The notes: generated from the letters alone by a model not told the origin. A stretch of 64,000 bases of DNA from Candidatus Poseidoniia archaeon (GCA_029936395.1 JAPYSW010000002.1:3950-67949), one strand, 5' to 3'; shown: positions 5,154-42,876, numbered from the stretch's first letter. Program-made: numbers and translations.

Positions 5154-5200
5154 TGGCACGTATTCTTAAATAGAATAACAAAATCACTTAGTAACTTCAT

Positions 5201-5728: not shown

Positions 5729-5739
5729 GGTATATATGC
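5723..5739 (+). promoter_or_regulatory. Putative BRE/TATA promoter element of the first pilin gene
   Basis: 'ACGTAAGGTATATATGC' about 45 bp upstream of the ATG. The same 17-mer recurs upstream of the paralog at 6361. Confidence 0.4.
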
Positions 5740-5781
5740 TATACCAGCCGTCTAGAGTTAGACTTAGGTCAGAGAATAAAT

Positions 5782-8202: not shown

Positions 8203-8702
8203 TCTTCTTCATTAGGGGGGCTGGATTTACCTTTACTCCAAGCTTTTATTCTTTCTTTTTTAGCTCTCTTTCTTAAGGTCGTAATATCGTCTTTGACAGG
8301 AAGTAATATAGGAATAGTAAATACAATCATTCCTAAAACAAGAGAAAAAAGACCCAATAAAATGTATTTTCTTATTATGATTGTTTCTAAAAAGAGACTG
8401 ATTGAAAGTAAAGCAAATATATTTGAAAACCATATAATTCTTCTATATGATTTTTCACTGAAAAAATATTTTCCAGCTTCATATTCTATATCTACTGAAA
8501 ATTCAGCTTCAGGTATTTCAATTTTATCTAAATTAACTTGAGGTCGTTCTCTATTTCGTTTTCTCAGATAAAGTGTTGCAAATACACCACCTGCAAGAAA
8601 TGCAGCTTGACCAAATCCAGGATCGCCAGCAGTAGTGGCAGCCCAAATAGCATACACAACTGCCAACCAAATAGCTACAAGAATTGAATAGTATAGGTTC
8701 AT
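8199..8702 (-). CDS. Integral membrane protein, about 4 TM helices
   Basis: Hydrophobic segments. Last gene of the minus-strand respiratory operon. Overlaps cca by 4 nt. Confidence 0.4.
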   Translation of the reverse strand: MNLYYSILVAIWLAVVYAIWAATTAGDPGFGQAAFLAGGVFATLYLRKRNRERPQVNLDKIEIPEAEFSVDIEYEAGKYFFSEKSYRRIIWFSNIFALLSISLFLETIIIRKYILLGLFSLVLGMIVFTIPILLPVKDDITTLRKRAKKERIKAWSKGKSSPPNEEE

Positions 8703-8715
8703 TCAATTACTAAGA

Positions 8716-10421: not shown

Positions 10422-11473
10422 AAGCTTACTCCCATTGTGGTTAATGCTCTCTGCTCTAATACATAATCAATATATTCGATATTTTGTGGACAAACTGCAG
10501 TACACATACCACAGGTAATACATGACCACATAGCGACACCATCGTGTTCATTTTGGAATGTATTAAATATAATATTTAGTTCATTTTCTCCTTCCATATC
10601 TCTAACTGGACAGATATCATCACAGAGCCCACATTGATAACAACGATTTAGTTTAAATTCATAAATGCGTTGCATTCTTCGGTCCGTTATTCCATCAGTA
10701 TAAAGATCGAATCTTTCTTCATCAGTTAATGGTTTTGCACCTTCCGACCTTCTTCGATCCAAGAATATATATGTAATCAATGCACAACCGATAGGCCCCC
10801 AAAGAGTTAGTTGTGATAAAACATCAGTATTGACTTGTGGATAATACATTGCAATATTGGCGTTAACTGAGAAAACAGACAGCATTATGACTAATGCAAT
10901 TCCATAAACTCCGATTGCAGCTCTTACAGGATCTTCGATAGGTCGTCTTTCGTGACCTCTATTGATAACATCTCCGTATTGAGGGTCAATTAATGCACCA
11001 ATAGCTCTGTCAAGGAAAGGAACTGCAACTACAAGTCCAATAATCATACCTTGTACCAAGGTACCCCATACTTTTGCAGTCATTAGGAAAAGATGAATAT
11101 CGTTTAATCCTAAGAATGGTATACTGGATAATGGAATTAATATTTGGATATCCCAAGCCACTTTCAAACATCCGAAAGCCCATAGTAAATACCAATCAGG
11201 TAATGGAGGTGGAAAAGCAGTACCTGCCGTTGGATCTGCAGCTTCATGTAATGGAGGTGGGATAAATGCAGACAAATAGAAGAATAAAGCAATGATATAC
11301 AAACTTAAAACAGAATCTCTAGTTACTTCATGTGGATAAAGTGGTTCTCCTTTAACCATATCAGCTTCAAGAACGGAATGCTCTTCTCTATGCTCCAATT
11401 TATTTATTGTATCAAGAGACTGTTGCTCTTCTTGATGTTCATAAATCATTTCTACAGCATCATCTTCATTCAT
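10418..11473 (-). CDS. Fusion protein: cytochrome b C-terminal domain (subunit IV / PetD-like) plus a 2x[4Fe-4S] ferredoxin domain
   Basis: 'PPPLPDWYLLWAFG' corresponds to the cytochrome b PEWY motif within about 3 TM helices. The C-terminus carries 'CYQCGLCDDICPV' and 'CITCGMCTAVCPQ'. Confidence 0.62.
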   Translation of the reverse strand: MNEDDAVEMIYEHQEEQQSLDTINKLEHREEHSVLEADMVKGEPLYPHEVTRDSVLSLYIIALFFYLSAFIPPPLHEAADPTAGTAFPPPLPDWYLLWAFGCLKVAWDIQILIPLSSIPFLGLNDIHLFLMTAKVWGTLVQGMIIGLVVAVPFLDRAIGALIDPQYGDVINRGHERRPIEDPVRAAIGVYGIALVIMLSVFSVNANIAMYYPQVNTDVLSQLTLWGPIGCALITYIFLDRRRSEGAKPLTDEERFDLYTDGITDRRMQRIYEFKLNRCYQCGLCDDICPVRDMEGENELNIIFNTFQNEHDGVAMWSCITCGMCTAVCPQNIEYIDYVLEQRALTTMGVSL

Positions 11474-12438
11474 TAATGCGGTTCAGCCTCCCCTTGTATC
11501 CAAACAAGTGCCATATGGATAATAATCAAAATAGTGCCTATTAGGGGAAGAACAAAAATATGCAACCAATACATCCTAGTTACAGTATCTCCAGTTAATT
11601 GAGTCCCTCCAAATACAATTTGAGCCATTAATGGCCCCATTGCAGGTATCGACGTTGCCATTTCTAAACCAATAGACCCAGCTGCATAACCAAGAGAATC
11701 CCATGGCAGTAGATAGCCCGTATATCCAAAGAAAATAGTAACCATCAATAGGAGAGATCCCAACATCCAATTTACTTCACGTGGATTTCGATAAGCACCA
11801 ACAAAGTAAACTCTCATCATATGAAGAAATACTGAAGCAACCATGAAGTGAGCTGACCAATGGTGGACTGCCCGAATAATGTAGCCAAATGTTACCTGCG
11901 TCATAATTAATTCCATAGATTGGTATGCACCAGAAGTAGAATGGCCATTTTCATCCAATATGAATTCTCCATCAGGGACATAATAAAATCCTAGATAAAT
12001 GCCAGTAATTGTAAGAATAATATATGCGAAAAAAGACAATCCACCTAATGAGTAAAAAGGATACCAATACCATACTGATTTTATATTGTATCTTTCAGTA
12101 TGAGATTGAGGAATAGTTCGACCCGTAGCAGGTAAAAGAGTGTAAACTACTGAATAGTATTCTCTTTTTGCTAGAGAAACGTAGCGATGTAGTGCAAATC
12201 TTTCATCAATCCATGCCCATGTATCAAATATTATTCTAGGAAGTAAGCCCGTGAAGTAAAGATAACCAACACCAAACACAGCTCCAGCCATTGATAAGAA
12301 TATTAGTGGGAATGTATATTTTCTCATTAATTCTTCTAAAATTGGAGTTTCAGCATTAACAGGTAATGCAAAAAGGGCTAAACATCCAATAACTATGGTA
12401 ATAATTTTATTAATTTTCATGTTTATCCTTGTCCACAA
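11473..12438 (-). CDS. Cytochrome b (b6-like N-terminal domain, heme-ligating His pairs)
   Basis: 'HHWSAHFMVASVFLHMMRVYF' and 'WLHIFVLPLIGTILIIIHMALV' give bis-His ligation for two hemes. Confidence 0.8.
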   Translation of the reverse strand: MWTRINMKINKIITIVIGCLALFALPVNAETPILEELMRKYTFPLIFLSMAGAVFGVGYLYFTGLLPRIIFDTWAWIDERFALHRYVSLAKREYYSVVYTLLPATGRTIPQSHTERYNIKSVWYWYPFYSLGGLSFFAYIILTITGIYLGFYYVPDGEFILDENGHSTSGAYQSMELIMTQVTFGYIIRAVHHWSAHFMVASVFLHMMRVYFVGAYRNPREVNWMLGSLLLMVTIFFGYTGYLLPWDSLGYAAGSIGLEMATSIPAMGPLMAQIVFGGTQLTGDTVTRMYWLHIFVLPLIGTILIIIHMALVWIQGEAEPH

Positions 12439-13097
12439 TACTTTAGCCAGTCTAAATGATTAGTTAGGCCGATTAATCCTCCATCTTTTTCAGCAATAGG
12501 AACTACTGGAAGCCCATAAGGTGCAGGTCCCTCTAACAATTTAGCTGCTTTAACTTCACGCCCTTGTTCATCTATGTTTGTAATAACATCTAATGGATCA
12601 AACAAAGATAAGTGACAAGGGCATAAAAACATATTTTCATAGTCCTTTCCCGATATTGTACTCTTTCCTTGAGGTGTGAAAACAGGTTTACAGCATAAAT
12701 GTGGACATTTATATGTATGATAGGCCATCATCATTGCATTACCTTCATCTACACTTATTCCTAATTCTTCCATGCCACTTTCAGCAGGTACTTTTATAAG
12801 TGCTAATTGAATTTCACAACTTCCTAATTCTTCTTCTAATTCTTTTGGAGCCCAATTAACAATAGCTACATCCCAAAGATCAAAATCTTCTTTTATTGCT
12901 ATTTTCCCACCTTTATCCTCATACCATTTTCCTTCTTCTTTTTTGTAAGTAAGTGTTTCATGGGCATCATCAGAATTACATCTAGTAATTGGCGGCGGAA
13001 GTAATGTTTTCAAAGCAGGAACCGTTAATGCACCAGTCATTCCTGCGCCAGCTAAACCAATAGCACCTTGTAAAAATCCTCTACGTGTAATCTTCAT
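12423..13097 (-). CDS. Rieske [2Fe-2S] protein with a Tat signal
   Basis: 'MKITRRGFLQGAIGLAGAG' is a twin-Arg signal. 'CPHLCC' and 'CPCHLSLF' are the Rieske boxes. Confidence 0.8.
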   Translation of the reverse strand: MKITRRGFLQGAIGLAGAGMTGALTVPALKTLLPPPITRCNSDDAHETLTYKKEEGKWYEDKGGKIAIKEDFDLWDVAIVNWAPKELEEELGSCEIQLALIKVPAESGMEELGISVDEGNAMMMAYHTYKCPHLCCKPVFTPQGKSTISGKDYENMFLCPCHLSLFDPLDVITNIDEQGREVKAAKLLEGPAPYGLPVVPIAEKDGGLIGLTNHLDWLKYCGQG

Positions 13098-13099
13098 AT

Positions 13100-13471
13100 T
13101 TAACGTTCAAGTTTTGTAATAACTTTCCTCCTTCGTTTTTTAGCTTCGAGTACATCTGGCATGAATGATCTTCTATAGAAATCAATCATAAGTCCTAGAA
13201 TTAGAAATGCCATGGCTATTGTAAATGATAAAAATTGTTGATCCCAATTTTCTAGAATTCCATAAATAAATAATGAATCATACATAAGTTCAAGTAACAA
13301 TAGTATCAAAACTATTGCAAAAATTTCAAGTTGTTCTTTACCTGGAATATTTCGCAATTCTTTTCCAAGATCCTCATCCTTATAAGTGCCTAATATTTTT
13401 TGTGCATCTTCAGTGGTAAGTTCACCTTTGGCGACTTTTTCTAAAATTTCATTAACCTCGGTAATGCGCAC
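13100..13471 (-). CDS. Small membrane protein (2 TM)
   Basis: Hydrophobic core. Overlaps the upstream gene. Confidence 0.35.
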   Translation of the reverse strand: MRITEVNEILEKVAKGELTTEDAQKILGTYKDEDLGKELRNIPGKEQLEIFAIVLILLLLELMYDSLFIYGILENWDQQFLSFTIAMAFLILGLMIDFYRRSFMPDVLEAKKRRRKVITKLER

Positions 13472-14147
13472 TCCCTCCTCTAATTACGATGTAAGCAACA
13501 AATATTGATAAGAAAACAACAGCTAGTCCAATAAGTCCAATCCAATACTGCATTAGTTCTACACCAAGTTCATGAATGGAAATTTCTTCTGATGTTAATT
13601 GAGGTGTTCCCAAAGATATTGCTGTAAAGTAGGACCATTGATCACCAGTAGTTCCTACTCCATTTACCACATTAAAATACATGGTGAAAACAGCATCACC
13701 GGTGCCTTCTGCAGGGGCAGTCCATTGGAATGTCCAATTACGAGCATTATTACTATTTGTATTATGGGAAATATACGAACCATCATCCCCAATCCAATAA
13801 TTTTCATTACTCTGGTATGCACCCTCACTAACTTCACTTAGAAATCCACCATAGCGAACGGCTCCTTCTTCAGAAATTACGTTAGTATCATTTATTTGGA
13901 GAGAAATATTGTATGTTTGTTCAGGGACGTATTTTTGAGGTATACCTTCTAGATTGTACATCCCTTCATTTAGTTGGACATCAGCGTGACAAGAACAACC
14001 ATGTGCAATAGCATCAGCAGCCCATTCTTCACCTGCTCCTTCTTGGGCACCACCTGCAGGATATCCATCAACACTTTTACCAGCTATCAGTGCTGTTAGA
14101 ATCAGCAATGCAAACAGACCGTGATTCATGGTGTTACGTATGTCCAT
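13452..14147 (-). CDS. Exported protein with a C-terminal TM anchor. First gene of the Rieske/cytochrome b operon.
   Basis: Signal peptide, 'HGCSCHAD' Cys/His cluster, 'NWTFQWTAPAEGTGDAVFTMYFNVVNG' motif shared with the 5201 ORF, and a C-terminal TM. Confidence 0.45.
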   Translation of the reverse strand: MDIRNTMNHGLFALLILTALIAGKSVDGYPAGGAQEGAGEEWAADAIAHGCSCHADVQLNEGMYNLEGIPQKYVPEQTYNISLQINDTNVISEEGAVRYGGFLSEVSEGAYQSNENYWIGDDGSYISHNTNSNNARNWTFQWTAPAEGTGDAVFTMYFNVVNGVGTTGDQWSYFTAISLGTPQLTSEEISIHELGVELMQYWIGLIGLAVVFLSIFVAYIVIRGGSAHYRG

Positions 14148-17178: not shown

Positions 17179-18108
17179 ATGACTGAAGTTAAAGATTTAA
17201 TTATAATCGGTTCAGGCCCAGCAGGATATACTGCGGGTTTGTATGCAGGGCGGGCGATGCTTAATCCTACTTTATTTGCAGGTTTTGCAAGCGGAGGTCA
17301 ATTAATGTTAACAAGTGATATTGAGAACTTCCCAGGATATCCTGAAGGCATTGCAGGCCCTGAGATGATGCTTGAGTTAAGAGCCCAAGCTACTCGTTTT
17401 GGTTGTGATATAATAGATAAAAATGTAGATTCAGTTGATATATCAGAGAGACCATTCAAAATAAATGTTGGAAAGGAAGTGCATTTGGCAAAATCTTTAA
17501 TCATTACAACAGGGGCTGAGGCAATCTGGTTAGATGCTATAAATGAGAATATTCATAAAGGCCGGGGAATTTCAACTTGCGCAACATGCGATGGTGCATT
17601 TTTTAGAGATAAAGAAGTAATTGTTATTGGTGGCGGCGATTCAGCTATGGAAGAAGCAACATTTTTGACACGTTTTTGTAGTAAAGTAACTATAGTACAC
17701 CGAAGAGAAGGATTGCGTTCATCTCAAATAATGACAAATAGGGCCAGAGAAAATCCCAAAATTGCTTGGAAGCTCAATTTTAGTATAAAAGAATGGTTAG
17801 GTTCCGAGGGAAATTTTGAAGGTGCACTTTTAGTAAATACCGGAACTGGTGTTGAAGAGAAGTTAGCATGTGATGGTGCCTTTATCGCAATTGGACATAA
17901 ACCAATGACTTCTTTTTTAGGTAGCCAACTTGAAACTGATGAAAGTGGTTATCTTCTTTGGAAAGAAAATACAATGACTAGTGTGCCTGGTGTATTTGCA
18001 GGTGGGGATGTGGTGGATACTCGTTATAGGCAAGCTATAACTGCAGCAAGTATGGGCTGTATGGCTGCTATAGATGTCGAGAAATGGTTAGAAGATAACC
18101 GTCATTAA
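17179..18108 (+). CDS. trxB: Thioredoxin-disulfide reductase
   Basis: 'IIIGSGPAGYTAG' FAD motif, 'CATCDG' redox-active CxxC, 'VIGGGDSAMEEA' NADPH motif. Confidence 0.9.
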   Translation: MTEVKDLIIIGSGPAGYTAGLYAGRAMLNPTLFAGFASGGQLMLTSDIENFPGYPEGIAGPEMMLELRAQATRFGCDIIDKNVDSVDISERPFKINVGKEVHLAKSLIITTGAEAIWLDAINENIHKGRGISTCATCDGAFFRDKEVIVIGGGDSAMEEATFLTRFCSKVTIVHRREGLRSSQIMTNRARENPKIAWKLNFSIKEWLGSEGNFEGALLVNTGTGVEEKLACDGAFIAIGHKPMTSFLGSQLETDESGYLLWKENTMTSVPGVFAGGDVVDTRYRQAITAASMGCMAAIDVEKWLEDNRH

Positions 18109-18149: not shown

Positions 18150-19214
18150 GTGCAGCGTCAGCTATTCTTAACTAATTCCGATGAAGCCGTGAGTCCTGTA
18201 ATCGGTACAATTTTAATTTTAGCAATTATGCTTACAGTTACAGGAACTATGTTGGCTTGGGGCATTCCTCAAATTCAACAAAATGAAGCTTATGCCATAT
18301 ATACGTCAGCACAAAACAATCTTTTAAATTTTGATGCAGATTTGGATCATGTAATTTCTCAAGGAGAAGGAGCGTCTCGTACTTCAACAATTTCTTTTAG
18401 CTCAGGTACCTTTGTTCAACGTGAAAATTTAGATGAAATTAGATATTATTATACTGCCGTTTCTTGGTCAGATTCTAAAATAATAGGTGTTAAAAAAGGT
18501 ACTGAATCTTTTGCAATAATGGATAACTTAGAAACAGTAGATGACTATAGAATTACTTTAGTTTATCCAAACGGAACTCAATGGATTGGAGATTCCATAG
18601 ATTCTTATGTTTCAGGTTTCCCCGCACTTGATTATGGCGTTAAGGCCACATATACAAGCACTATCAATTCAACACAAGTTGGTGGATTCTTCATATATGG
18701 TACGGATTCGTTATCTTACAAATATGCCTCAGTTTCAGGAGTTTTCAAAATGCGAATGCTTAATGGCGGAGTTGTTTCTAAAGAGCCGGGCGGTCAATTT
18801 TATGTCAGTTCTCAACCACTAACTCGCTCAGTTATAAATGAAGTAATTGATCAACAAGATTCTTATGATTCATTAACACTTTATCAAACAGATTATAATA
18901 TGTCATCTTCTATAAAATCGTTAATGGCTGGTAACTTTGTTTTCGATATACGTAATCAAGGTGGTAATGATACTGCTTTGAATATTTACAGTTTACGAAT
19001 AGCTTTTGATGGAGAAAGTTCAGATGCTTTTGAAAGATATTATGTTAAGAATAATAATTTTGAATATACACAATATTACTTTTCAAAAGAGGATTCGGTG
19101 ACAGTATATAATGAATTATCAACATCAGAAATCGATGTCGAATATTCACAATCAACACCATTTGACTTTAGATTATTAGAGAGGACAATACATGTCAAAT
19201 TTAGCTTACGATGA
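18150..19214 (+). CDS. Type IV pilin-like protein (DUF1628 N-terminus) with a large globular domain
   Basis: GTG start. 'MQRQLFLTNSDEAVSPVIGTILILAIMLTV'. Many NxS/T sequons. Confidence 0.65.
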   Translation: MQRQLFLTNSDEAVSPVIGTILILAIMLTVTGTMLAWGIPQIQQNEAYAIYTSAQNNLLNFDADLDHVISQGEGASRTSTISFSSGTFVQRENLDEIRYYYTAVSWSDSKIIGVKKGTESFAIMDNLETVDDYRITLVYPNGTQWIGDSIDSYVSGFPALDYGVKATYTSTINSTQVGGFFIYGTDSLSYKYASVSGVFKMRMLNGGVVSKEPGGQFYVSSQPLTRSVINEVIDQQDSYDSLTLYQTDYNMSSSIKSLMAGNFVFDIRNQGGNDTALNIYSLRIAFDGESSDAFERYYVKNNNFEYTQYYFSKEDSVTVYNELSTSEIDVEYSQSTPFDFRLLERTIHVKFSLR

Positions 19215-19668
19215 TTCTGCAGTTTCAGAATTAATTGGTTATGTTTACACTATAGCCGTTTCCATTTTAATTTTATCTTCCATAATGTTAACTTCTACAA
19301 CAATGCTTAATGGAAATATAGCTAACACAGCCCAAGAAGAAGCCGAACAATTAGCACTTTATTTCCAACTATCGATTGAAGATTTGCTGACTACAGTACG
19401 AGAGTATCCTGATTCTTCTCCAGTTATTAAATTGGATTCCGGTATCGAATCTATAAATCATGGAATTAAGTATAAGATAAATGGGACTGCAGGTGGACTT
19501 AAAGTTACTACAATGCAGCCTAGAGGTGGTGAGTTTGAGGTAACTTTCCCTATGTCTCCTGCTATAGCTATAGAGACTACAAGTGGTTTACCATTAATAT
19601 CGACGTCTTCTTATATAGTCATATACTATGATAATAATCTAATGGTTGTCAAGTTAACCACTGGATGA
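19192..19668 (+). CDS. Pilin-like / FlaF-FlaG-like protein with a class III signal-like N-terminus
   Basis: 'DSAVSELIGYVYTIAVSILILSSIM'. Confidence 0.5.
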   Translation: MSNLAYDDSAVSELIGYVYTIAVSILILSSIMLTSTTMLNGNIANTAQEEAEQLALYFQLSIEDLLTTVREYPDSSPVIKLDSGIESINHGIKYKINGTAGGLKVTTMQPRGGEFEVTFPMSPAIAIETTSGLPLISTSSYIVIYYDNNLMVVKLTTG

Positions 19669-21926
19669 ATAAAATGAGCGCAGCCAAAGAAACAATGGAA
19701 AACGCTTCGAGTTTGCTCGGTGAACAAGATGAGCAGATTGATGAGTCCAAACTTTCTTGGCTTCAGCGTCGTAAACTCAATAAACAACGTAAAGCAGAAG
19801 CTAAGAAGCGTAAAGCTGCTGAAAACGAAGGTGTGATTCATGATTTAGTTATGGATGATATTGAGATTGGTGAAGATTTTGAAGAATTAGATACTTATCC
19901 TGTTTATCCTCCTTTTTCTTATGTTAGAGTTTTGTTTGATAAGAGAGATTACTCTCGTTTTTATTATGTAGTTGAACCTAAGGCTTCAAAGCAGGAAAAA
20001 GAAGATTTAGATACAATTAAGCTGGTTCTCCAGAGGGCTCTTAACATTAATCGTGAAACGCTCGATGAAACTCAAGAAGATTTCTTGAAGCAAGCAGTGG
20101 ATGATATTTTAGATAGTTATCGATTAAAATCACGTAAGAGCAATCGAGAGAAAATCCATTATTATATTGAAAGAGATTTGCTTGGTTATGGTAAAATAGA
20201 CACCATGATGAAAGATCCAAATATTGAGGATGTTTCTTGTGATGGTCCTGGTGTTGAGATATTTGTTTACCATAGGCGATTTGAATCTTTACGAACAAAT
20301 GTAATGTGGGAAGATGAATTAGAATTAGAACAATATATTATTCGTATGGCTCAACGTTGTGGAAAACATATTTCCATTGCTGCACCATTATTAGATGCAA
20401 CTTTGATGGATGGTTCACGTATTGTTATGACACTTGGACGTGAGGTTTCGACAAAAGGTTCTACTTTTACGATACGGCGTTTTAGAGATGAGCCCTTTAC
20501 TCCTGTAGATTTACTTGAATTCAAAACATTTTCATCAATGCAAATTGCATTCTTTTGGTTAGCAATGCAGTATGGTATGTCTATGCTTTTCGTTGGTGGA
20601 ACTGCATCTGGGAAGACAACTTCTTTGAATGCTTGTTCACTTTTCCTTCCATGGCAACATAAAATTGTAAGTATTGAAGAGACAAGAGAATTGAATTTAC
20701 CCCATCCAAACTGGATTCCAGGTTGTACTCGGCAAGGTTTTGGAGGAGAATCTTCAGGATCTGGTGAAAAAGCAGCTGGAGAAGTTGATATGTATGATTT
20801 GTTAAGGGCAGCACTCCGTGAACGTCCAGAATACATAATTGTTGGAGAAATTCGAGGTGCAGAAGCTTATGTTCTTTTCCAGGCTATGGCGACAGGACAT
20901 ACAACGTATTCAACTTTCCACGCAGATTCTATTCAGAGTTTAGTACATCGTCTTGAGAACAAACCAATTGAAATTCCTAGAGTATTGATTCCAGCATTAG
21001 ATGGGATCTCGATTCAGATTCAGACTCGTGTCGGAGGCAAGCGTGTTCGAAGAAATAAAGCAATTGTTGAGATTATAGGAATAGATCCTCATTCACATGA
21101 ATTGTTAACCAATGAAGCATTCCGAAGGGATAATAAGACTGACGAATATGTTTTCACAGGTAAGTCATATATTTTCGAAAAAATTATGGTGAAAGCGAAT
21201 CTTAATCGTGTAGAGATAATGGATGAAACCAAGAGGAGACAATTGGTTATGGAATGGTGTTTAAAGAAAGGAATTAGAGATTACAAGGATTTTGCAAAAG
21301 TTGTTGCAGAGTATTATGTTCATCCTGAAGATGTAATGCGTAAAGTTTACGAAGATATGCAAGTCGGTGGCAAGAAACGTCGTCGCAAAGTCGAAGATAG
21401 AGACATGGACTTATCTCGGGATGATGAGGAAGTTGATGTTGGTGATTTCCCACCTAAGGCAAGGCAGAAGTATCAGACACGTGAAGCCAAAGAACAAGCC
21501 ACTCGTGCAAGGAATGATGCTAAAATTTCACAGACTGATGATCCAACTAAGAGAGCTAAATTAATTAAAAACGAGGAATCTAGGCGTGAAAAGATAGAAT
21601 TAAGATTACAAAATGATTTACTCAAAGATCAGGCATATTATGCACCATTGAAACAATTAGTTCCATTGACTAAAGAAGTAGATATTGGAGATGTTTCATC
21701 TCTGAATGAGGTTGAAGGTCGTAGAATTTTGAAAAGAGTATTATCTGAAATTAATGCTCGAACTAAAGCAGCAATGAATATTGAAAAAAGTGATGAAGGT
21801 CAAAGATCGGCAGCCGTTGAAGCTGAAGAAACTCGTCAGTCTAAAGCATTGGTAGCTTTGAAAACCAATTTAGCCAATAGAGTACAACGTTCTGCTAATC
21901 CACGTTGGTGGCACAAATGGCTCTGA
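19665..21926 (+). CDS. Type II/IV secretion-system ATPase (FlaI/VirB11/TadA family) with long charged N- and C-terminal extensions
   Basis: Walker A 'GGTASGKTT' and 'GEIRGAEAYVLFQAMATGHTTYSTFHA'. Roughly the last 190 aa are K/R/E/D-rich with low complexity. Confidence 0.85.
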   Translation: MNKMSAAKETMENASSLLGEQDEQIDESKLSWLQRRKLNKQRKAEAKKRKAAENEGVIHDLVMDDIEIGEDFEELDTYPVYPPFSYVRVLFDKRDYSRFYYVVEPKASKQEKEDLDTIKLVLQRALNINRETLDETQEDFLKQAVDDILDSYRLKSRKSNREKIHYYIERDLLGYGKIDTMMKDPNIEDVSCDGPGVEIFVYHRRFESLRTNVMWEDELELEQYIIRMAQRCGKHISIAAPLLDATLMDGSRIVMTLGREVSTKGSTFTIRRFRDEPFTPVDLLEFKTFSSMQIAFFWLAMQYGMSMLFVGGTASGKTTSLNACSLFLPWQHKIVSIEETRELNLPHPNWIPGCTRQGFGGESSGSGEKAAGEVDMYDLLRAALRERPEYIIVGEIRGAEAYVLFQAMATGHTTYSTFHADSIQSLVHRLENKPIEIPRVLIPALDGISIQIQTRVGGKRVRRNKAIVEIIGIDPHSHELLTNEAFRRDNKTDEYVFTGKSYIFEKIMVKANLNRVEIMDETKRRQLVMEWCLKKGIRDYKDFAKVVAEYYVHPEDVMRKVYEDMQVGGKKRRRKVEDRDMDLSRDDEEVDVGDFPPKARQKYQTREAKEQATRARNDAKISQTDDPTKRAKLIKNEESRREKIELRLQNDLLKDQAYYAPLKQLVPLTKEVDIGDVSSLNEVEGRRILKRVLSEINARTKAAMNIEKSDEGQRSAAVEAEETRQSKALVALKTNLANRVQRSANPRWWHKWL

Positions 21927-22876
21927 CGGGTTTTGAAACATTTAGTAGAGTTTTATTCGGCTGGTTAGGTCGTATGCTGACCAAAGATTCTCTCGGTCTT
22001 AAAAATCAGTTAGTTAAAGCCCGTATTCCCCTTTTACCAGAAGATTATGTAGCAACTTCAGCAATGCAAGTTGTTTTAACTTTTTTAGTTGGTTTGGGTG
22101 TCACATTACTCCTTCTTGGAGTTGTGATTCCTCAGATTGAGTCTATAGAAAATCCTAATGGAAATACAGATCCTTTTACTGGTGTCAGAGAGAATTATTC
22201 CATTTCTATTTTTACTGAAATGATTATAGCTGTAGTATTATTATTAGTATTACCTGGATTGGTAGCCCTAGTTCAATGGTTAACACCGGCATTATTGCAA
22301 AGTAGCCGAGGTAAAAATATGGATAAGCAAATACCTTTTGCAGCTAGTTATGTTTCAGCAATGGCTGCAGCTAATGCAACACCTTCCGTGACTTTCAAAT
22401 CACTTGCCCGAAATTATGACATATATGGAGAAATAGCGCATGAGGCTGCTTGGATTTATCATAGTATGGAGTTTATTGGCCGAGATTTAGTAACTACATT
22501 AAAAGAAGCTGTTGACAGAACACCTTCTGAGAGATTTGCAGAGTTTGTTCAGGGCATTATCGGAACTGTAACTGCTGGAGGAAATCTCAAACTTTATTTC
22601 TTGAACAGAGCTGAATATTATGGTCAACAAAATAGAAGTCATGTTAAAGATATTTTACAACAGATGGCTTTATTCTCTGAAGCTTACGTTGTTGTAGCTG
22701 TAGCATTACCTATTTTTGCAATGATTATTGCAGTTATTACTTTTTGGGTTTCTGGTGCTGGGATGCAAATTGAACAGATACACATGTATCTTTTAGTTTT
22801 CGGAGGATTTCCAGTTATCCAAATAATTTTTTCAGGTTTATTTTATTCACTAAGTCAGGAGGTTTCAACTGATTAA
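21917..22876 (+). CDS. Pilus platform membrane protein (FlaJ/TadB-like, T2SS-F domain)
   Basis: Polytopic with a cytoplasmic domain. ATG at 21917 overlaps the ATPase stop (the ORF-track start at 21905 is a TTG). Confidence 0.55.
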   Translation: MALTGFETFSRVLFGWLGRMLTKDSLGLKNQLVKARIPLLPEDYVATSAMQVVLTFLVGLGVTLLLLGVVIPQIESIENPNGNTDPFTGVRENYSISIFTEMIIAVVLLLVLPGLVALVQWLTPALLQSSRGKNMDKQIPFAASYVSAMAAANATPSVTFKSLARNYDIYGEIAHEAAWIYHSMEFIGRDLVTTLKEAVDRTPSERFAEFVQGIIGTVTAGGNLKLYFLNRAEYYGQQNRSHVKDILQQMALFSEAYVVVAVALPIFAMIIAVITFWVSGAGMQIEQIHMYLLVFGGFPVIQIIFSGLFYSLSQEVSTD

Positions 22877-24111
22877 TGTCAATAAAAGGGAACCTTCAGA
22901 ATAAAGTCTACACTGACCGCCGTACTGGCGTCAAAAGGCGTTGGATGGAATATTGGAAAGTCGATCGCTGGTTAAGTGTCAGAAATAAAGATGCCGATTG
23001 GGGTCCTACACTTGTTGCATTTTTTTCAATAACATTGGCCATCTTCTTTTTTGCAATTGCTAATGAAGATATTAAGAGTGATAAAAGAACTGAAATGGTG
23101 GATAGAGATCATGATAAACAATTTGATAATCCTTGGAATCTAAATGATGGCCGATTTACTTTTACTTTAGGAAATACATATGCCGAACCACAGAATGGTG
23201 AAAAATATGAATTGATTACTGGTTTGGGTTCTTCTCTTGCAATTAAAAATAATGAGTCTAAAGATAAAGATCCTTTCATAAATGGTATAGATGAAGAAAT
23301 GGATGCCGATCAATGGTATCGAAGTTATCCTGAAATTTCAGCTATAGATTATATTGTATTTGGTTTAATTGGATTGATGTATCCTTACGGATGGTATGGA
23401 AAAAGACGAGATGCGATTAGAGCTCGTGTTGAAGAAAAGTTCCCAGATTTCTTGAGAGATTTAGCTGAATATTGGAAAGGAGGGCTCAGTATGACTGTAG
23501 CTATTCAGACTTTAGCTAAAGGAGAGTATGGCAATCTCAATGATGAAGTAAATAAAATGGCTTCACAAATTTCATGGGGTGTTTCTTTTGGCGAAGTTTT
23601 AGAGATGTTTACTGAAAGAGTAACTTCACCAATTGTGACAAGAGCCGTTAGGATGGTCGATGAAGCAAACAGAGCTGGAGGTAGAATTTCAGATATTCTT
23701 TTGGCAGCATCATTTGATGCTAGAGAAATAAAGGCTTTAGAAAATGAAAGAAGACAGGAAGTAGGTAGTTATGTAACGGTCATTTATACTTCATTCTTTG
23801 TTTACTTAGGTATAATTTTAGTTCTTGCTAGTACTTTTATTCCTGCAATTGTAGATTCATCTGCAGCCACTGGCGGCGGCAGTATGTCTATAGGTAATTT
23901 AACAATTAGAGAGATGAATGAAGTTTGGATTTCAAGTATGTTCCTTTACAGCCTCATGGTTCAAGGAATAGGTAACGGACTTGCAGCAGGTTTCATGTCA
24001 ACAGGTAAACTATATTCTGCATTTAGTAAAGCATCATTCCTTCTCTTTTTAGGTTGGTTTATTTTCGAAATAATGGGTATTGCAACTTCTGTAAACACTC
24101 CACAGATTTAA
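22876..24111 (+). CDS. Pilus platform membrane protein (FlaJ/TadC-like, T2SS-F domain)
   Basis: 'FLRDLAEYWKGGLSMTVAIQTLA...' and 'RAVRMVDEANRAGGRISDIL'. TAATG overlap with the upstream gene. Confidence 0.7.
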   Translation: MSIKGNLQNKVYTDRRTGVKRRWMEYWKVDRWLSVRNKDADWGPTLVAFFSITLAIFFFAIANEDIKSDKRTEMVDRDHDKQFDNPWNLNDGRFTFTLGNTYAEPQNGEKYELITGLGSSLAIKNNESKDKDPFINGIDEEMDADQWYRSYPEISAIDYIVFGLIGLMYPYGWYGKRRDAIRARVEEKFPDFLRDLAEYWKGGLSMTVAIQTLAKGEYGNLNDEVNKMASQISWGVSFGEVLEMFTERVTSPIVTRAVRMVDEANRAGGRISDILLAASFDAREIKALENERRQEVGSYVTVIYTSFFVYLGIILVLASTFIPAIVDSSAATGGGSMSIGNLTIREMNEVWISSMFLYSLMVQGIGNGLAAGFMSTGKLYSAFSKASFLLFLGWFIFEIMGIATSVNTPQI

Positions 24112-24127
24112 TTGGAGTTTTATTATT

Positions 24128-24580
24128 ATGAAAAATACCAAAGGTCAAATGCATGTATTGGAAGTTTTGTTAGTAGCAACCTTATTCACTTCTACAATCA
24201 ATGTTGCCGTTAGTGTTCTTCCTACAAGTGATGCTAATAATTTTGAGGAAAATGACCTTTATTTTACAGGTTTAGAAATTCTTGAGATATTTGATGAATG
24301 GGTTCCTGTAGACTCAACTATTGCTGCAGCCCATCACGATTCAACATTGTCTTGGTGGTTAGCTACAGAGAATTATACTGCAATAAAGCAATATTTGGAT
24401 GCCGGTCTTTCCTCTTCATTATCATATAGATTGGAAGGGACACATGGGGGTCAGACTGATGTTATTGTAGATCGGACAGTTGACTCAGGACCTGTTACTC
24501 AGACTTTCAGACTAGTTTGGGCTGATGAAGAACTTTGGGAATTAAATTTACAGCTGTGGTATGGATATAGGGAGGATTAA
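24128..24580 (+). CDS. Putative minor pilin (short positively charged N-terminus plus hydrophobic helix)
   Basis: 'MKNTKGQMHVLEVLLVATLFTSTINVAV'. Confidence 0.4.
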   Translation: MKNTKGQMHVLEVLLVATLFTSTINVAVSVLPTSDANNFEENDLYFTGLEILEIFDEWVPVDSTIAAAHHDSTLSWWLATENYTAIKQYLDAGLSSSLSYRLEGTHGGQTDVIVDRTVDSGPVTQTFRLVWADEELWELNLQLWYGYRED

Positions 24581-24969
24581 TGAAAGATCAAGCACAACTT
24601 CTTTTAGTTTCCGGACTTTTAATGTCTATTACATTAATTGCAGTTACTAGTACTATTACTCATTCAGTAAATTTAGGCAATCATCAAGGTGAGAGGCATG
24701 ACATAACTCCAGTAATTACTTCTTTAGAGAATAGTTTTTCATTAGCTTTAGAATATGAAGTATTGAATGCAGCAGATGGTATTCAATTGTCTACTTCTTT
24801 TGAGATAGTTACCGAAGAGTTTGAATCAATTCTTGCTTCACGCGGCTATTCTTTACATTACGCATTAACTTCAGCAATAGAAAGTAGTGGTACTCATACT
24901 TTCGTTTATAGTTATGAGCTTAATGACAATACAATATCGGTCAATTTTAATAAGTCTTTAACTTTTTAA
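24580..24969 (+). CDS. Putative minor pilin
   Basis: 'MKDQAQLLLVSGLLMSITLIAV'. Start overlaps the upstream stop. Confidence 0.4.
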   Translation: MKDQAQLLLVSGLLMSITLIAVTSTITHSVNLGNHQGERHDITPVITSLENSFSLALEYEVLNAADGIQLSTSFEIVTEEFESILASRGYSLHYALTSAIESSGTHTFVYSYELNDNTISVNFNKSLTF

Positions 24970-25280
24970 TCGTTTGAACCAATAAAAGAGAATATAGTTC
25001 TTTTGAACATCCCACCAAATCCTAAGAAACTAGTTATCAACATTCCTACAAACATGATAATATAACTTAGATATAATTGTTCAAGATGATTGTCGTAATC
25101 TGAAGGTATTTCTCCACCTTTTAGTCCTAAAAGTCTAATTAAACCGAATATAAATCCTACAAAAATAAGCAGCATTCCAAATCCTGTAATTATTTCATTA
25201 GTTGTGAAGCCATCCTCGGAAGGATCGTCTCTACCTTTAAAATCTGTGAATTCATCATTATTATCATTGTCGTCTGACAT
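24966..25280 (-). CDS. Small 2-TM membrane protein with an acidic N-terminus
   Basis: Hydrophobicity only. Confidence 0.3.
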   Translation of the reverse strand: MSDDNDNNDEFTDFKGRDDPSEDGFTTNEIITGFGMLLIFVGFIFGLIRLLGLKGGEIPSDYDNHLEQLYLSYIIMFVGMLITSFLGFGGMFKRTIFSFIGSND

Positions 25281-25323: not shown

Positions 25324-26943
25324 TTATCCTTTCTTATGAGCTAAAGCAGCTTTTACTAAACCAAAGTGTAAAGGAGATGGTTCATCAGGTCGGGATTTAA
25401 ATTCTGGATGAAATTGAGATGCTACAAAATAGGGATGTCCTTCAAGTTCCAATATCTCCATTCTTCGTCCACTAATATCTCTTCCAGTATATTTTAGGCC
25501 TTTAGCTTCAATTTGATCGATATATTCAGGGTTTATTTCATAACGATGTCTATGCCTTTCAGATATTTTGTTTATACCATAAAGATCTCTGGCTATTCCC
25601 TTACTAACATTAACCACATGGTCCCCTAATCTCATAGTCGCTCCCATATCATTGACACCTTCTTGTTCCGGAAGTATATTTACAACGGGATGTGGACTTT
25701 CTGGATCGAGTTCAGCAGAGTTTGCTCCTTTTAGCCCTAAAACATTTCGTGCAAATTCAATTGTTGCCAATTGGAAACCAAAGCAAACGCCAAGATAGGG
25801 GGTATTTTGTTCACGAGCCCATTTAGTACTCATAATTTTACCTTCAGCTCCTCGTTTTCCAAATCCGCCAGGGACAAGAACACCATTAACTCCTTCAAGA
25901 TCTTCAATAGTTCCACTATCTTCCAAGTCAGGTGCTTCAATCCATCTAATTTTGACCCTACATCCTAGAACTGCACCAGCATATCTAAGAGATTCTTTAT
26001 GAGAAATATACGAATCCTTTAGGGCAGTATATTTTCCAATCAAGGCGATTTCGACTTCTTCACCTCCATTTGAAACCCGTTTTGCAAAATCTTTCCATTT
26101 TGTAACATCAGGTTTTCTTGTCTTAAGTCCAAGTCTTTTTTCAATTAATTCATGTAAGCCTTGATCTAAAAACATTAAAGGAACATCATAGATAGACTTT
26201 GCATCTGGCGCAGAGATAACGGCTTCTCTAGGTATATCAGCAAAGAAAGCAATTTTTGCAGCAATATCTTTGTTTAACATATCGTTACTTCTCCCAACAA
26301 TAATGTCAGGTTTTATTCCCAATCCTTGTAATTCTTTAATCGAATGTTGTGTTGGTTTGGTCTTTTGTTCGCCAACAGATCCTACGACAGGAACAAGGGT
26401 AGTATGAATATACATTACATTTTCTTTTCCTTCTTCTCTACTTAAAAGACGCCCAGCTTCCATGAATGGCATGGATTCAATATCCCCCACAGTCCCTCCA
26501 AATTCAACCATACAAATATCAGCTTTTGAATTCTCAGCAGCTTTTCTCATTCCATCAACGATTTCCCGAACTACGTGAGGAATTATTTGAACAGTTTGAC
26601 CCAGATAGTCTCCACGTCTTTCCTTTTCTATAACTCTCTTGTAAACTTTCCCCGTAGTTATATTATGTTCACGAGTCAAATTACAGTTTAAAAATCGCTC
26701 ATAGTTTCCAAGATCTAAATCTACTTCAGCTCCATCAGTCATAACAAAAACTTCACCATGTTCATATGGATTCATTGTGCCTGCATCTACATTCAAGTAG
26801 GGATCCATTTTTACGGCTGTAACTTTGTAGCCAGCACATTGTAGCAATAGTCCTGCAGAAGATGAAGTTATTCCTTTACCTAATCCGGAAAGGACACCGC
26901 CGGTTACAATTATATATTTCATTAACTCAACGGACATATACAT
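25324..26943 (-). CDS. pyrG: CTP synthase
   Basis: 'MKYIIVTGGVLSGLGKGITSSS' and the glutamine amidotransferase domain 'GVCFGFQ'. The true start may be the internal ATG at 26922 (MKYIIV). Confidence 0.95.
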   Translation of the reverse strand: MYMSVELMKYIIVTGGVLSGLGKGITSSSAGLLLQCAGYKVTAVKMDPYLNVDAGTMNPYEHGEVFVMTDGAEVDLDLGNYERFLNCNLTREHNITTGKVYKRVIEKERRGDYLGQTVQIIPHVVREIVDGMRKAAENSKADICMVEFGGTVGDIESMPFMEAGRLLSREEGKENVMYIHTTLVPVVGSVGEQKTKPTQHSIKELQGLGIKPDIIVGRSNDMLNKDIAAKIAFFADIPREAVISAPDAKSIYDVPLMFLDQGLHELIEKRLGLKTRKPDVTKWKDFAKRVSNGGEEVEIALIGKYTALKDSYISHKESLRYAGAVLGCRVKIRWIEAPDLEDSGTIEDLEGVNGVLVPGGFGKRGAEGKIMSTKWAREQNTPYLGVCFGFQLATIEFARNVLGLKGANSAELDPESPHPVVNILPEQEGVNDMGATMRLGDHVVNVSKGIARDLYGINKISERHRHRYEINPEYIDQIEAKGLKYTGRDISGRRMEILELEGHPYFVASQFHPEFKSRPDEPSPLHFGLVKAALAHKKG

Positions 26944-27000: not shown

Positions 27001-27903
27001 GTGACTCTAATAATTAACAAGCATAGTAACAATATATTTTGGTTTGATTTATGTCCTAATAATGAATCAAATTTCATATCTGTGTATGTAATTATAGATA
27101 AAAAAATTTCATTAATTGAAACCGGTCCTGCAAGTTCACATAATACTCTTTTAGCAGGCATAAAGCAGATAGGTTTGAGTCCTGAAGATATAGATTATAT
27201 TATTCCAACTCACATACATTTAGATCATTTTGGAGGTGGTGGGCACATGATGGAAGTTTGTAAGAACGCTAAATCAATAGTCCATCCTAATGCATACAAG
27301 CATGTTTCTAGTATTGATCGTTGGTGGTCAGGTAGCCATGATTTTCTAGGTAGTATTGCAGATCTTTATGGTAAACCTAAACCAATACCTGAAAAACGGT
27401 TAATCTCGGCCGAGGATGGCTTTGAATTGTCACTAGGTAGTCAAAATCTCAAAGGACTTCACACTCCAGGGCATGCCCCTCATCACATAACTTGGGTTTA
27501 CGGAGAGGAAGCTTTTGTTGGAGATTCAGCAGGTCTTTGGTATCCGAATATAGGTAGTTCTTTTCCGGTTACGCCAGGATATTATAGACATGATTTAGCT
27601 TTAGAAAGTATTAAAAAAATGGATAAATTAGATTTAGCATATATTCATTATACTCATTTTGGCCCTCGTATTGCCAAGGGAGTTTTTAGAGAAACTCGGA
27701 AAGAATTTGAACTGTGGATGGAAGTTGTTGAAAAAGGCTATCAAGAAGATAAATCATCTAATATTATTTTAAAGGAATTATTTGAGATAAGGCCTGGTCT
27801 TGAAGCAACACATTTATCACATGGCCTTCATCAGATGGAAACCCATTTAGGCACTGTCAAAGGTATGTTGCATTGGGTTAGGAGGATAAATGCGCAAGAC
27901 TGA
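27001..27903 (+). CDS. MBL-fold metallohydrolase
   Basis: 'THIHLDHFGGGG' HxHxDH motif, then 'HTPGHAPHH'. Start uncertain (GTG). Confidence 0.65.
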   Translation: MTLIINKHSNNIFWFDLCPNNESNFISVYVIIDKKISLIETGPASSHNTLLAGIKQIGLSPEDIDYIIPTHIHLDHFGGGGHMMEVCKNAKSIVHPNAYKHVSSIDRWWSGSHDFLGSIADLYGKPKPIPEKRLISAEDGFELSLGSQNLKGLHTPGHAPHHITWVYGEEAFVGDSAGLWYPNIGSSFPVTPGYYRHDLALESIKKMDKLDLAYIHYTHFGPRIAKGVFRETRKEFELWMEVVEKGYQEDKSSNIILKELFEIRPGLEATHLSHGLHQMETHLGTVKGMLHWVRRINAQD

Positions 27904-28465
27904 AAAAGTATTATTAGTAAAAGCGTTCCCATATCCTCATGTAATAGTAAAAGATTTTCTTGATGAGAGCACATTAGACCTAGTAATTGATGCTCTAGCA
28001 GGTTTAGAATATGACTTTAAGGAATCGGATTTATTCAGCTATTGGGCTAGTGTTGAATTAACAGACATAGATCATCCTGCAATAAATATTCTTCGAGATG
28101 ATTTGGGAGATGAACTATGGCGGAAGAAGGTTGCTGAGGCCTTTAGTTCTAAACCACTTTCTAGTATAGATATGGCAGCATATGTTTATGGTTTAGGTGA
28201 TTTTTTGCTGCCTCATGATGATCAAGTTGAAGAGAGGATTATTGCATACAGTCTACATTTGACTCCTGAAATAACTGAAGACATGGGTGGTTCTTTACAA
28301 ATTTTTAATGTTGATGAGAATAATAATTCAAAGATAGCCGATAGCATTATTCCAGAATATAATTCTTTGATTATGTTTGAAGTTTCTAAACATTCTTGGC
28401 ATCAGGTTGGGGAGATACTACAAGATATTCAGAGATTAACTGTTACGGGGTGGTATCATGGTTGA
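27890..28465 (+). CDS. 2OG-Fe(II) oxygenase-like protein
   Basis: 'LPHDD' (HxD) ... 'SWHQV' ... 'RLT' fits the facial triad plus the 2OG-binding Arg. Confidence 0.5.
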   Translation: MRKTEKVLLVKAFPYPHVIVKDFLDESTLDLVIDALAGLEYDFKESDLFSYWASVELTDIDHPAINILRDDLGDELWRKKVAEAFSSKPLSSIDMAAYVYGLGDFLLPHDDQVEERIIAYSLHLTPEITEDMGGSLQIFNVDENNNSKIADSIIPEYNSLIMFEVSKHSWHQVGEILQDIQRLTVTGWYHG

Positions 28466-29012
28466 TATAAATTTTTATTATTTAGAAGATGCTACTCTTT
28501 CTAATTTAAATAGAATTTTTAATTCTGCAGATATTCCCTTTATTCGATTGTCTAAATTTCTTGATGAGGCTCCAAATAAGATTGAGCCTGAATTAATTTC
28601 CGAAGAAAAAATAGGCTATTATAATCGTAAAATCGGAAATGCCTTATTAGAAGATTTTTGGAAATCTTCTGATTTCAATGATTTTTTGTGTAAAGCAACA
28701 GGCCTTAAACCAAAGTTTCGTAATTCGAATCATGTGTCCTATTCTCCTGGAGATTATTCATTATTACATATGGATGAGTCGGAAGCTAGTAGATTGTTAG
28801 TAGTATATGATCTTACGAAAGAATGGAGGCACGAATGGGGTGGCTACGATATTTATACGTCACCAGATAAAGATCCTTTAGTTTGCAATAGAGACTTCGG
28901 TTCCCTTATGATTGTTAAACTTGATTCTAATGATTTATCTTGTACTAGATATGTTAGTATAAAATCTCATTTTAGTGCACATATTGACCGCATAATATAT
29001 GATTTAGACTAG
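28458..29012 (+). CDS. 2OG-Fe(II) oxygenase-like paralog
   Basis: 'LLHMDESE' (HxD/E) ... 'SHFSAHIDR'. Overlaps the upstream paralog by 8 nt. Confidence 0.4.
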   Translation: MVDINFYYLEDATLSNLNRIFNSADIPFIRLSKFLDEAPNKIEPELISEEKIGYYNRKIGNALLEDFWKSSDFNDFLCKATGLKPKFRNSNHVSYSPGDYSLLHMDESEASRLLVVYDLTKEWRHEWGGYDIYTSPDKDPLVCNRDFGSLMIVKLDSNDLSCTRYVSIKSHFSAHIDRIIYDLD

Positions 29013-42874: not shown

Positions 42875-42876
42875 AT

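Follow-up and report, generated by a model that had tools for sequence, protein, structure and literature searches.

A stretch of 64,000 nucleotides (nt) from a Candidatus Poseidoniia archaeon (JAPYSW010000002.1:3950-67949), in the following called the window, contains at positions 18150-24969 a seven-gene operon predicted to encode an assembly machine of the type IV pilus (T4P) kind. The host is a Marine Group III (MGIII, Poseidoniia) euryarchaeote, an uncultured ocean archaeon, and near-identical ATPases carry the annotation Marine Group III euryarchaeote or Candidatus Poseidoniia. All seven open reading frames (ORFs) were obtained by a mechanical ORF listing, which reproduced exactly the gene order, coordinates and lengths given for this region by an earlier reading made from the sequence alone (the sequence-only reading). 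Further evidence is named with the individual features:

18150-19214, plus strand: P1, pilin-like protein (DUF7289) of 354 amino acids (aa), GTG start
19192-19668, plus strand: P2, pilin-like protein (DUF7266-like) of 158 aa
19665-21926, plus strand: assembly ATPase of the VirB11/FlaI family, 753 aa (also Pfam and NCBIfam)
21905-22876, plus strand: platform A, 323 aa from a TTG, one T2SSF domain (also Pfam)
22876-24111, plus strand: platform B, 411 aa, one T2SSF domain (also Pfam)
24128-24580, plus strand: P6, small pilin-like protein of 150 aa with Gln at +1 (also N-terminus)
24580-24969, plus strand: P7, small pilin-like protein of 129 aa with Gln at +1 (also N-terminus)

Since the junctions are so tight (-23, -4, -22, -1, +16, and -1 nt in order from P1 to P7), the seven genes fit one transcription unit. 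Their assignments are far beyond chance, because the ATPase matches the T2SSE domain with E=1e-29 and a FlaI model with E=1e-120, the platforms match with E values of about 1e-12, and synteny extends over 11 MGIII genomes. The 5′ neighbor of the operon is a thioredoxin reductase gene (17179-18108), and on its 3′ side a membrane protein of 104 aa is encoded convergently, beyond which lies CTP synthase (25324-26943). The 104-aa protein (24966-25280, minus strand), convergent with P7, has an acidic N-terminus, two transmembrane segments and no family match; its position is kept across the MGIII loci.

ATPase, split platform and conservation

The ATPase consists of a basic/acidic N-terminal extension (aa 1-65), a core (aa 66-565) and a C-terminal extension (aa 566-753, nt 21360-21923). 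Its motifs are intact, namely Walker A (GGTASGKT, as read from the translation), Walker B (IIVGEIR) and the His box. Searches against Pfam returned T2SSE with 103 bits (E=1.3e-29) and PilB3_C with 39.4 bits (cut-off 27), together with a weak match to PilB3_N. Among the NCBIfam models, the one for FlaI matched best (403.6 bits, E=1e-120), but this score lies under its equivalog cut-off of 550 (NF058587); BasE followed with 206 bits and TadA with 143 bits (cut-off 373). When the ATPase was compared to the sequences of solved structures in the PDB, afGspE from Archaeoglobus fulgidus (2OAP) reached 421 bits over residues 63-563, Sulfolobus acidocaldarius FlaI 277 bits and CpaF 133 bits.

An exhaustive HMMER search with 50%-identity representatives revealed that relatives below approximately 60% identity align solely over residues 65-565. 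Most relatives are 600-1500 aa long, which is caused by variable and usually N-terminal extensions; these are charged and of low complexity, and some contain zinc ribbons. The oversized ATPase is normal for its clade, and further domains at the N- and C-terminus are also known from PilB4 of Halobacteria (PMC4858521). The C-terminal extension comprises 188 aa (40% charged residues, net charge +9), ends with NPRWWHKWL and occurs, among the relatives compared, in MGIII only. It diverges faster than the core (39-91% vs 82-97% identity), while conserved islands are kept and the tail motif P-x-W-W-H-x-W-[LF] is retained in 12 out of 12 MGIII sequences. An origin by fusion with a neighboring gene is unsupported, as neither 80 related loci nor the window contain a free-standing homolog of the extension. 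Our guess would be that the tail docks to the membrane interface or to a partner protein.

Both platform proteins carry a single T2SSF domain. Platform A (45.8 bits for T2SSF, several transmembrane-like segments) aligns to positions 40-229 of 555 of an ArlJ/FlaJ model of NCBIfam, and its in-frame ATG at 21917 (319 aa) corresponds to the start position used by the orthologs. Platform B (47 bits for T2SSF) has an N-terminal region of about 160 aa with one transmembrane segment and aligns to positions 216-458 of 465 and 306-546 of 555 of NCBIfam FlaJ models. The scores of both proteins are far under the ArlJ cut-offs (400-570 bits). Because the alignments cover separate regions of FlaJ, with one T2SSF domain each, platforms A and B correspond, as judged by these alignments, to the two halves (N and C) of a platform of the FlaJ/PilC type. 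BLASTP detected no pairwise similarity between the two proteins, for which reason a recent tandem duplication was rejected; fission of a two-domain FlaJ would be the better reading of the pair. A frameshift artifact as the source of the split was rejected as well, since the split is found in all of the 60-plus related loci. In every related locus with downstream sequence, be it from Marine Group II (MGII), other Thermoplasmatota, Methanosarcinales or Methanocellales, the ATPase gene is followed by a pair of platform genes. The split platform is therefore a clade-wide character and neither a peculiarity of the window nor an artifact.

The sequence-only reading had described a giant ATPase of the FlaI/VirB11 family and a platform divided over two genes in the manner of TadB/TadC. 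Both descriptions were borne out, the former by the T2SSE and FlaI-model matches of the 753-aa protein, although its size proved ordinary among its relatives, and the latter by the two genes with one T2SSF domain each and by their positions on the 555-residue FlaJ model (40-229 and 306-546).

The distribution of the operon was surveyed by scanning one genome per species, followed by ORF calling and labeling with phmmer (loci named L001 onwards). The full operon is present in 11 MGIII genomes (L001-L011 and L013; L012 and L014 are short fragments) with ATPase identities of 70-95%, which include epipelagic as well as bathypelagic clades. The order in these genomes is thioredoxin reductase, P1, P2, ATPase (725-761 aa), platform A, platform B, P6, P7, small membrane protein and CTP synthase, with single ORFs missed or cut in a few contigs. 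In MGII (approximately 45 loci from both families) an ATPase of about 508 aa is followed by platform A (339 aa), platform B (about 520 aa), a P6-like and a P7-like gene; these loci are without P1 and P2, and their upstream genes encode an ABC transporter and a kinase. L016, from another member of the Thermoplasmatota, contains two copies of P1, then P2, ATPase, platform A, platform B, P6, and P7. Some other loci of Thermoplasmata, Methanosarcinales, and Methanocellales have a MinD-like gene upstream of the ATPase (L065, L078), and in L070 and L077 large pilin-like genes and a PilA gene are located downstream.

Three further observations were made in the course of this survey. Several other Thermoplasmata loci (L068-L077) contain two ATPase genes in tandem. 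A locus labeled "Verrucomicrobiales bacterium" (L043, NZEQ01000077.1) is of the MGII type (ATPase of 515 aa, platforms of 339 and 524 aa) and is probably a mis-binned contig. In the metagenome-assembled genome (MAG) Cayman_92_shallow (L008, approximately 4800-5900), and in this MAG alone, platform A is broken into ORFs of 215 and 130 aa, which could be due to a frameshift, an assembly error or a pseudogene.

Pilin-like proteins and the source of the major pilin

P1, P2, P6, and P7 all start with a short polar stretch followed by a Gly or Ala at position -1 and a hydrophobic run of about 20 residues. With a slash marking the predicted cleavage, the N-termini read SDEA/VSPVIGTILILAIML for P1 (class III-type EA/VSPVIG), DDSA/VSELIGYVYTIAVSILIL for P2, MKNTKG/QMHVLEVLLVATLF for P6, and MKDQA/QLLLVSGLLMSITLIAV for P7, those of P1 and P2 being preceded by further residues. 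Sites of characterized archaeal pilins include DAVS, DSAV, and RAVS for PilA1-6 of Haloferax and, for the Epd pilins of Methanococcus, KGQV, KGQI, and RAQI (PMC4371748 Table 1). The four predicted sites (EA/VS, DSA/VS, KG/QM, and QA/QL) match these tabulated ones and are kept in the orthologs, with the site of P2 resembling that of Haloferax volcanii PilA2 (DSAV). All four proteins thus have N-termini of the class III type, a property that the sequence-only reading had proposed to be checked on the pilin candidates. Its assignment of the pilins to DUF1628 stands in part: P1 has a DUF1628-like N-terminus that scores below threshold, whereas P2 shows a weak match to DUF7266 alone and P6 and P7 belong to no family. 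The bona fide DUF1628 pilins of the window lie outside the operon, at 5782-6288 and 6424-6927.

In Pfam scans of the four proteins (cut-off E<=0.1), P1 matched DUF7289 with 27.7 bits (cut-off 27) and, below threshold, Pilin_N/DUF1628 with 19.8 bits (cut-off 25.2). It has one transmembrane-like segment at residues 10-40. An AlphaFold2 (AF2) model based on a 31-sequence alignment (predicted local distance difference test (pLDDT) 84.9, predicted template-modeling score (pTM) 0.79) comprises a helix of 57 residues (15-71) and then an all-beta head, and hence the modeled protein has the classic layout of a pilin. P1 homologs in MGIII are 35-98% identical and all annotated as hypothetical. The protein evolves much faster than the ATPase (61% vs 89% identity in comparison to CG-Epi3), a divergence typical of surface-exposed subunits, and DUF7289-like proteins recur in related loci. 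P1 probably corresponds to arCOG02911, the "signature" minor pilin found in clade 2 pili of Euryarchaeota, which is described as a large, all-beta and FlaFind-positive protein of about 250-550 aa (PMC4858521).

P2 is conserved in the MGIII loci and matches DUF7266 below threshold (15.9 bits); its positional counterpart in L016 passes the cut-off of this family (31.8 vs 27.6 bits). No publication on DUF7289 or DUF7266 came up in a literature search. P6 has a transmembrane-like segment at residues 10-32, its homologs are 77-99% identical and all labeled "hypothetical," and just 3′ of platform B the motif [GA]-Q-[MVI]-H-x-[LI]-E occurs in 52 out of 58 loci of the Poseidoniia type, as opposed to 0 out of 10 loci of other lineages. 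P7 (transmembrane-like segment at 4-27) has the motif [GA]-Q-[LM]-L-[LM], conserved in MGIII, L016, and MGII loci. Neither P6 nor P7 gave a credible family match in Pfam or NCBIfam. From their sequences, the two appear to represent uncatalogued pilin-like families with Gln at +1 that are restricted to Poseidoniia-type loci.

Besides the operon, the window contains a cassette with two pilin genes of the PilA type and a second ATPase module:

4416-5153, plus strand: ArsR/PadR-type helix-turn-helix (HTH) regulator (HTH_20 and HTH_5 matches)
5201-5728, plus strand: secreted, C-terminally anchored protein of 175 aa (signal-like N-terminus, transmembrane segment at 146-170, no Pfam family)
5782-6288, plus strand: PilA-type (DUF1628) pilin a, 168 aa (Pilin_N 41.4 bits; TIGR02537 41.7 bits, cut-off 20)
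6424-6927, plus strand: PilA-type (DUF1628) pilin b, 167 aa, tandem paralog of pilin a (Pilin_N 41.1 bits, TIGR02537 48.2 bits)
41642-42874, minus strand: second-module ATPase, 410 aa (sequence comparison)
42877-43659, minus strand: second-module platform, 260 aa, T2SSF, C half (Pfam)
43652-44233, minus strand: second-module platform, 193 aa, T2SSF, N half (Pfam)

The N-terminus of PilA-type pilin a reads NNDEEA/VSPVIAVILMVAITVV. The pilin pair lies about 12 kb upstream of the operon, directly preceded by the genes of the HTH regulator and the 175-aa protein, which may form a regulatory or accessory cassette of the PilA pilins. The order of regulator, 175-aa protein and PilA is kept in L007 and L013, where it is located about 4 kb from the orthologous operon and on its other side; in the related Thermoplasmatota genome of L077 a PilA gene lies inside the locus. 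We infer that the two PilA-type pilins are candidate major subunits supplied in trans to the operon. The second module (41642-44233, minus strand) consists of two platform genes and an ATPase gene with no adjacent pilin gene. Its ATPase is 35% identical to the one of the operon and scores about equally well against afGspE (243 bits) and CpaF (234 bits) of the PDB, with FlaI at 153 bits. The order platform-platform-ATPase is that of Epd/Tad systems (Denise et al., 2019; PMC6668835).

Taken together, we consider it likely that the operon encodes the assembly machinery of a non-archaellar T4P of the clade 2 kind in Marine Group III. Pilin precursors with class III signal peptides would be inserted into the membrane and cleaved after the Gly or Ala at -1 by a PibD/FlaK-type prepilin peptidase encoded elsewhere. 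A hexamer of the ATPase would dock on a heterodimeric platform formed by the two half-FlaJ proteins, and ATP hydrolysis would drive pilins from the membrane into a helical filament. P1, P2, P6, and P7 might be co-transcribed priming, tip or adhesin subunits of low abundance, with the bulk of the fiber most likely formed by the two PilA-type pilins 12 kb upstream, and the filament would most likely serve attachment to particles or other cells instead of swimming. That the four pilin-like proteins of the operon are minor or priming subunits while the PilA genes supply the major pilin is a proposal for which the chances are about even.

Alternatively, the operon could encode a self-contained pilus with P6, P7 or P1 as its major subunit, leaving the PilA pilins to the second module at 41642-44233, an arrangement that we regard as unlikely. 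It would be in accordance with the PilB4 variant of clade 2, which comes with pilins of its own and is presumed not to need PilA (PMC4858521), with the very high conservation of P6 and with the presence in the window of a second full set of ATPase and platform genes that adjoins no pilin gene. In addition, MGII keeps the ATPase, the platforms, P6, and P7 but not P1 and P2, for which reason P6 and P7 seem to be the constant pilin partners of the machine. However, P6 and P7 are without a PilA-like H-domain, the PilA cassette is found within a few kb of the operon in diverged MGIII lineages, and PilA is even inside the L077 locus. Machines of the Epd/Tad type normally use short Flp/Epd pilins and not DUF1628 pilins. 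The PilB3/PilC3 module of H. volcanii, moreover, uses PilA in trans (PMC4371748; PMC4858521).

Another explanation concerns a pseudopilus or bindosome-like surface assembly, which would expose large proteins with class III signals such as P1 and would form no long fiber. The large, beta-rich head of P1 without a solved homolog and the weak matches to BasE (206 bits) and BasF (27 bits) would fit such an assembly. It is nevertheless very improbable, considering that both matches are far under their cut-offs (1000 and 1300), that the locus contains no gene for a substrate-binding protein with a class III signal and that the DUF7289/DUF7266 set recurs together with PilA in pilus-type loci of other Thermoplasmatota.

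A more far-reaching interpretation would be that the MGIII ATPase tail and the P6/P7 pair mark a filament type specific to Poseidoniia instead of a routine adhesion pilus. In such a filament the tail would act as a tether between the motor and either the membrane or a partner, thereby replacing a scaffold of the FlaH, FlaX or MinD type, and P6 and P7 would be processed by a separate, EppA-like route. We think that this is quite improbable; if true, the abundant planktonic MGII and MGIII would share an uncharacterized surface machine with a function beyond simple adhesion, e.g., DNA uptake, cell-cell contact or retraction-based movement.

Several observations weigh against the assembly of a clade 2-kind adhesion pilus by the operon. 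In a scan of the window (64 kb) in which 65 non-overlapping ORFs of at least 90 aa were compared to Pfam with cut-offs from 1e-6 to 0.1, neither an A24 prepilin peptidase nor a MinD/FleN-type ATPase was found. A Foldseek search with the P1 model against the PDB gave no match at E<=0.001 and TM-scores of at most 0.15, and because of this the head of P1 is tied to no solved pilin or adhesin. For P6, the AF2 model was based on a shallow alignment and is weak (pLDDT 66.5, N-terminus unmodeled), and Foldseek searches with it gave spurious matches to ribosomal protein S3 alone and no solved pilin. The second module could equally well assemble the PilA pilins. The role in adhesion is probable by analogy with Haloferax, Halobacterium, and Methanococcus, and the placement in clade 2, likewise probable, is derived from the ranking of hidden Markov model (HMM) and PDB scores and from gene context.

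Archaellum genes and the Marine Group III literature

The operon shares with the archaellum the ATPase family, a FlaJ-type platform and class III signal peptides. The ATPase is annotated as "flagellar protein FlaI" by the Joint Genome Institute (JGI), and the FlaI model is indeed its best match in NCBIfam (403.6 bits). Li et al. (2015; PMC4660358) placed the orthologous genes of MG-III under flagellar proteins and described the MG-II and MG-III of the deep sea as "motile heterotrophs" on the basis of flagellar genes. According to this interpretation, the operon would encode an archaellum-like rotary motility organelle.

Several lines of evidence argue against it. The FlaI score remains below the equivalog cut-off of 550, and among solved structures afGspE outscores FlaI (421 vs 277 bits). 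An archaellum has archaellin, ArlF/G, ArlH, and ArlCDE or ArlX, none of which was found with the operon: among the 65 ORFs of the window neither archaellin (PF01917) and FlaF/G nor a KaiC-like FlaH, FlaC/D/E or FlaX could be detected. The platform of the archaellum is a single two-domain ArlJ/FlaJ, whereas the operon distributes FlaJ over two one-domain genes. It is therefore very likely that the operon encodes a T4P-type assembly machine and not an archaellum; the archaellum reading is largely refuted for 18150-24969, and a rotary organelle appears exceedingly improbable. The sequence-only reading had noted the absence of FlaH and FlaCDE from the operon, which holds as well for the remaining scanned ORFs (90 aa or more) of the 64 kb, and had regarded immediately flanking flaH and flaCDE genes as evidence to the contrary; such flanking genes are excluded, since in the MGIII loci the flanks are occupied by thioredoxin reductase and CTP synthase. 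Its suggestion of an adhesion-type pilus in place of an archaellum agrees with the sub-cut-off FlaI score, the higher score of afGspE and the lack of any archaellum gene.

In the published gene lists, the MG-II bins have operons with FlaB, FlaF, FlaG, FlaH, FlaI, and FlaJ, whereas no FlaH, FlaB, FlaF or FlaG is listed for the MG-III bins, for which the entries are "Flp pilus assembly ATPase CpaF," "flagella assembly protein J," "TadC" and "flagellin-like" genes, the last of them highly transcribed (PMC4660358 Suppl. Table 11). Since only CpaF, FlaJ, TadC, and "flagellin-like" entries are given there, the published evidence for MG-III "flagella" consists of T4P parts. Deep-sea samples contain transcripts of the orthologs in the MGIII bin Cayman92, namely the ATPase, FlaJ and two TadC, and of "flagellin-like" genes (PMC4660358 Suppl. 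Table 11). By a match of scaffold numbers we infer that the genes shallow_1008222 5-8 of Cayman92 are the ATPase, the platform A broken in two and the platform B of L008, and the break may explain why one "FlaJ" and two "TadC" appear in Li et al. (2015). Provided that this match is correct, the transcription of the Cayman92 orthologs suggests that the operon is transcribed in situ.

The MGIII genes called "flagellar" in the literature would accordingly be this operon, the CpaF-type module and the PilA-like "flagellin-like" genes. They are accompanied here by no gene specific to the archaellum, and for MGIII the evidence therefore speaks for attachment pili and not for swimming. Whether the abundant, uncultured MGII and MGIII live freely, attached to particles or as motile cells is argued on the grounds of gene content, so that reading these genes as pilus genes affects where MGIII is placed in models of particle degradation. 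Three small points deserve attention: the MGIII-specific tail of the ATPase, two pilin-like families outside the domain libraries and the recognition of the MGIII "flagellar" genes as pilus genes.

Some other genes of the window, located outside the operon, are mentioned here as side observations. A membrane redox cluster at 8199-14147 (minus strand) encodes a cytochrome b, two multi-4Fe-4S proteins, a CCG-domain protein, a protein with a twin-arginine translocation (Tat) signal, a DUF7318 protein and a Reeler-domain protein with a C-terminal transmembrane segment, and may represent an unusual respiratory complex. Two overlapping genes at 27890-29012 (plus strand) code for a 2OG-Fe(II) oxygenase domain and for a protein similar to the C-terminal degradation domain of Ofd1; the pair resembles a split prolyl hydroxylase of the Ofd1/Tpa1 type. 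A Holliday-junction resolvase of the RusA family (98 bits) is encoded at 35750-36187 (plus strand) amid housekeeping genes; in bacteria, RusA is usually associated with phages or prophages, which makes its occurrence in an archaeal genome remarkable. Finally, a secreted protein of 729 aa with a CARDB domain, encoded at 61142-63331 (plus strand), is a candidate cell-surface or adhesion protein.

Comparison with known type IV filament systems

In the definition of Makarova et al. (2016), T4P of the euryarchaeal "clade 2" form the sister group to the ATPase clade of the archaellum (PMC4858521). The ancestral plan of this clade comprises an ATPase, a TadC-like protein, the arCOG02911 minor pilin and a major pilin of the PilA family; the PilA pilin is often encoded in trans, and many loci contain two tadC-like genes (PMC4858521). 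In H. volcanii, where PilA1-6 form adhesion pili, the clade 2 module PilB3/PilC3 works with PilA pilins that are supplied in trans (PMC4371748; PMC4858521). Membership of the operon in clade 2 is probable because every part of its system has a counterpart in this plan. The core of the ATPase contains a PilB3_C domain and is nearest, among solved structures, to afGspE, itself a putative member of this lineage. TadC-like platform genes, of which a pair is common in the clade, follow the ATPase gene, and the N- and C-terminal additions of the ATPase have their parallel in PilB4 of Halobacteria. P1 (DUF7289) is a predicted large all-beta pilin of the class III type and putatively arCOG02911, and the genes of the PilA/DUF1628 pilins, which are putatively linked to the ATPase operon, lie apart from it.

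Differences to the described clade 2 systems exist as well. Marine Group III is outside the census of Makarova et al. (2016), the long extension of the operon ATPase is C-terminal, unrelated in sequence to the others and provided with a conserved Trp-rich tail, no MinD/FleN gene lies near the operon, and P6 and P7 belong to families without a Pfam or NCBIfam model that are apparently confined to Poseidoniia-type loci. From the scores and the gene context, it nonetheless appears quite likely that the operon is of the clade 2 kind, i.e., of the lineage of PilB3/PilC3-PilA and afGspE.

With the Epd pili of Methanococcus maripaludis (EpdJ/EpdK/EpdL, EppA) and with bacterial Tad systems, the operon shares a platform made of two one-T2SSF genes that correspond to the halves of FlaJ, and overlapping genes that suggest a co-transcribed operon; the Gln at +1 of P6 and P7 is also found in EppA substrates (KGQV, RAQI). 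In contrast to the order platform, platform, ATPase of Epd/Tad loci, the operon has the order ATPase, platform, platform, its ATPase is closer to afGspE and FlaI (421 and 277 bits) than to CpaF (133 bits), and its pilins are not of the short Flp/DUF361 type. Membership in the Epd/Tad group (clade 1) was therefore rejected on the grounds of ATPase similarity (TadA 143 vs 373 bits) and gene order; the second module of the window (41642-44233) fits the Epd/Tad pattern better than the operon does. Neither the Ups pili of Sulfolobales (UpsF 31 and 27 bits vs a cut-off of 400) nor the bindosome (Bas) system, with BasE and BasF as given above, could be retained as the class of the operon. By this comparison, the operon is an ordinary example of a catalogued class of euryarchaeal pilus.

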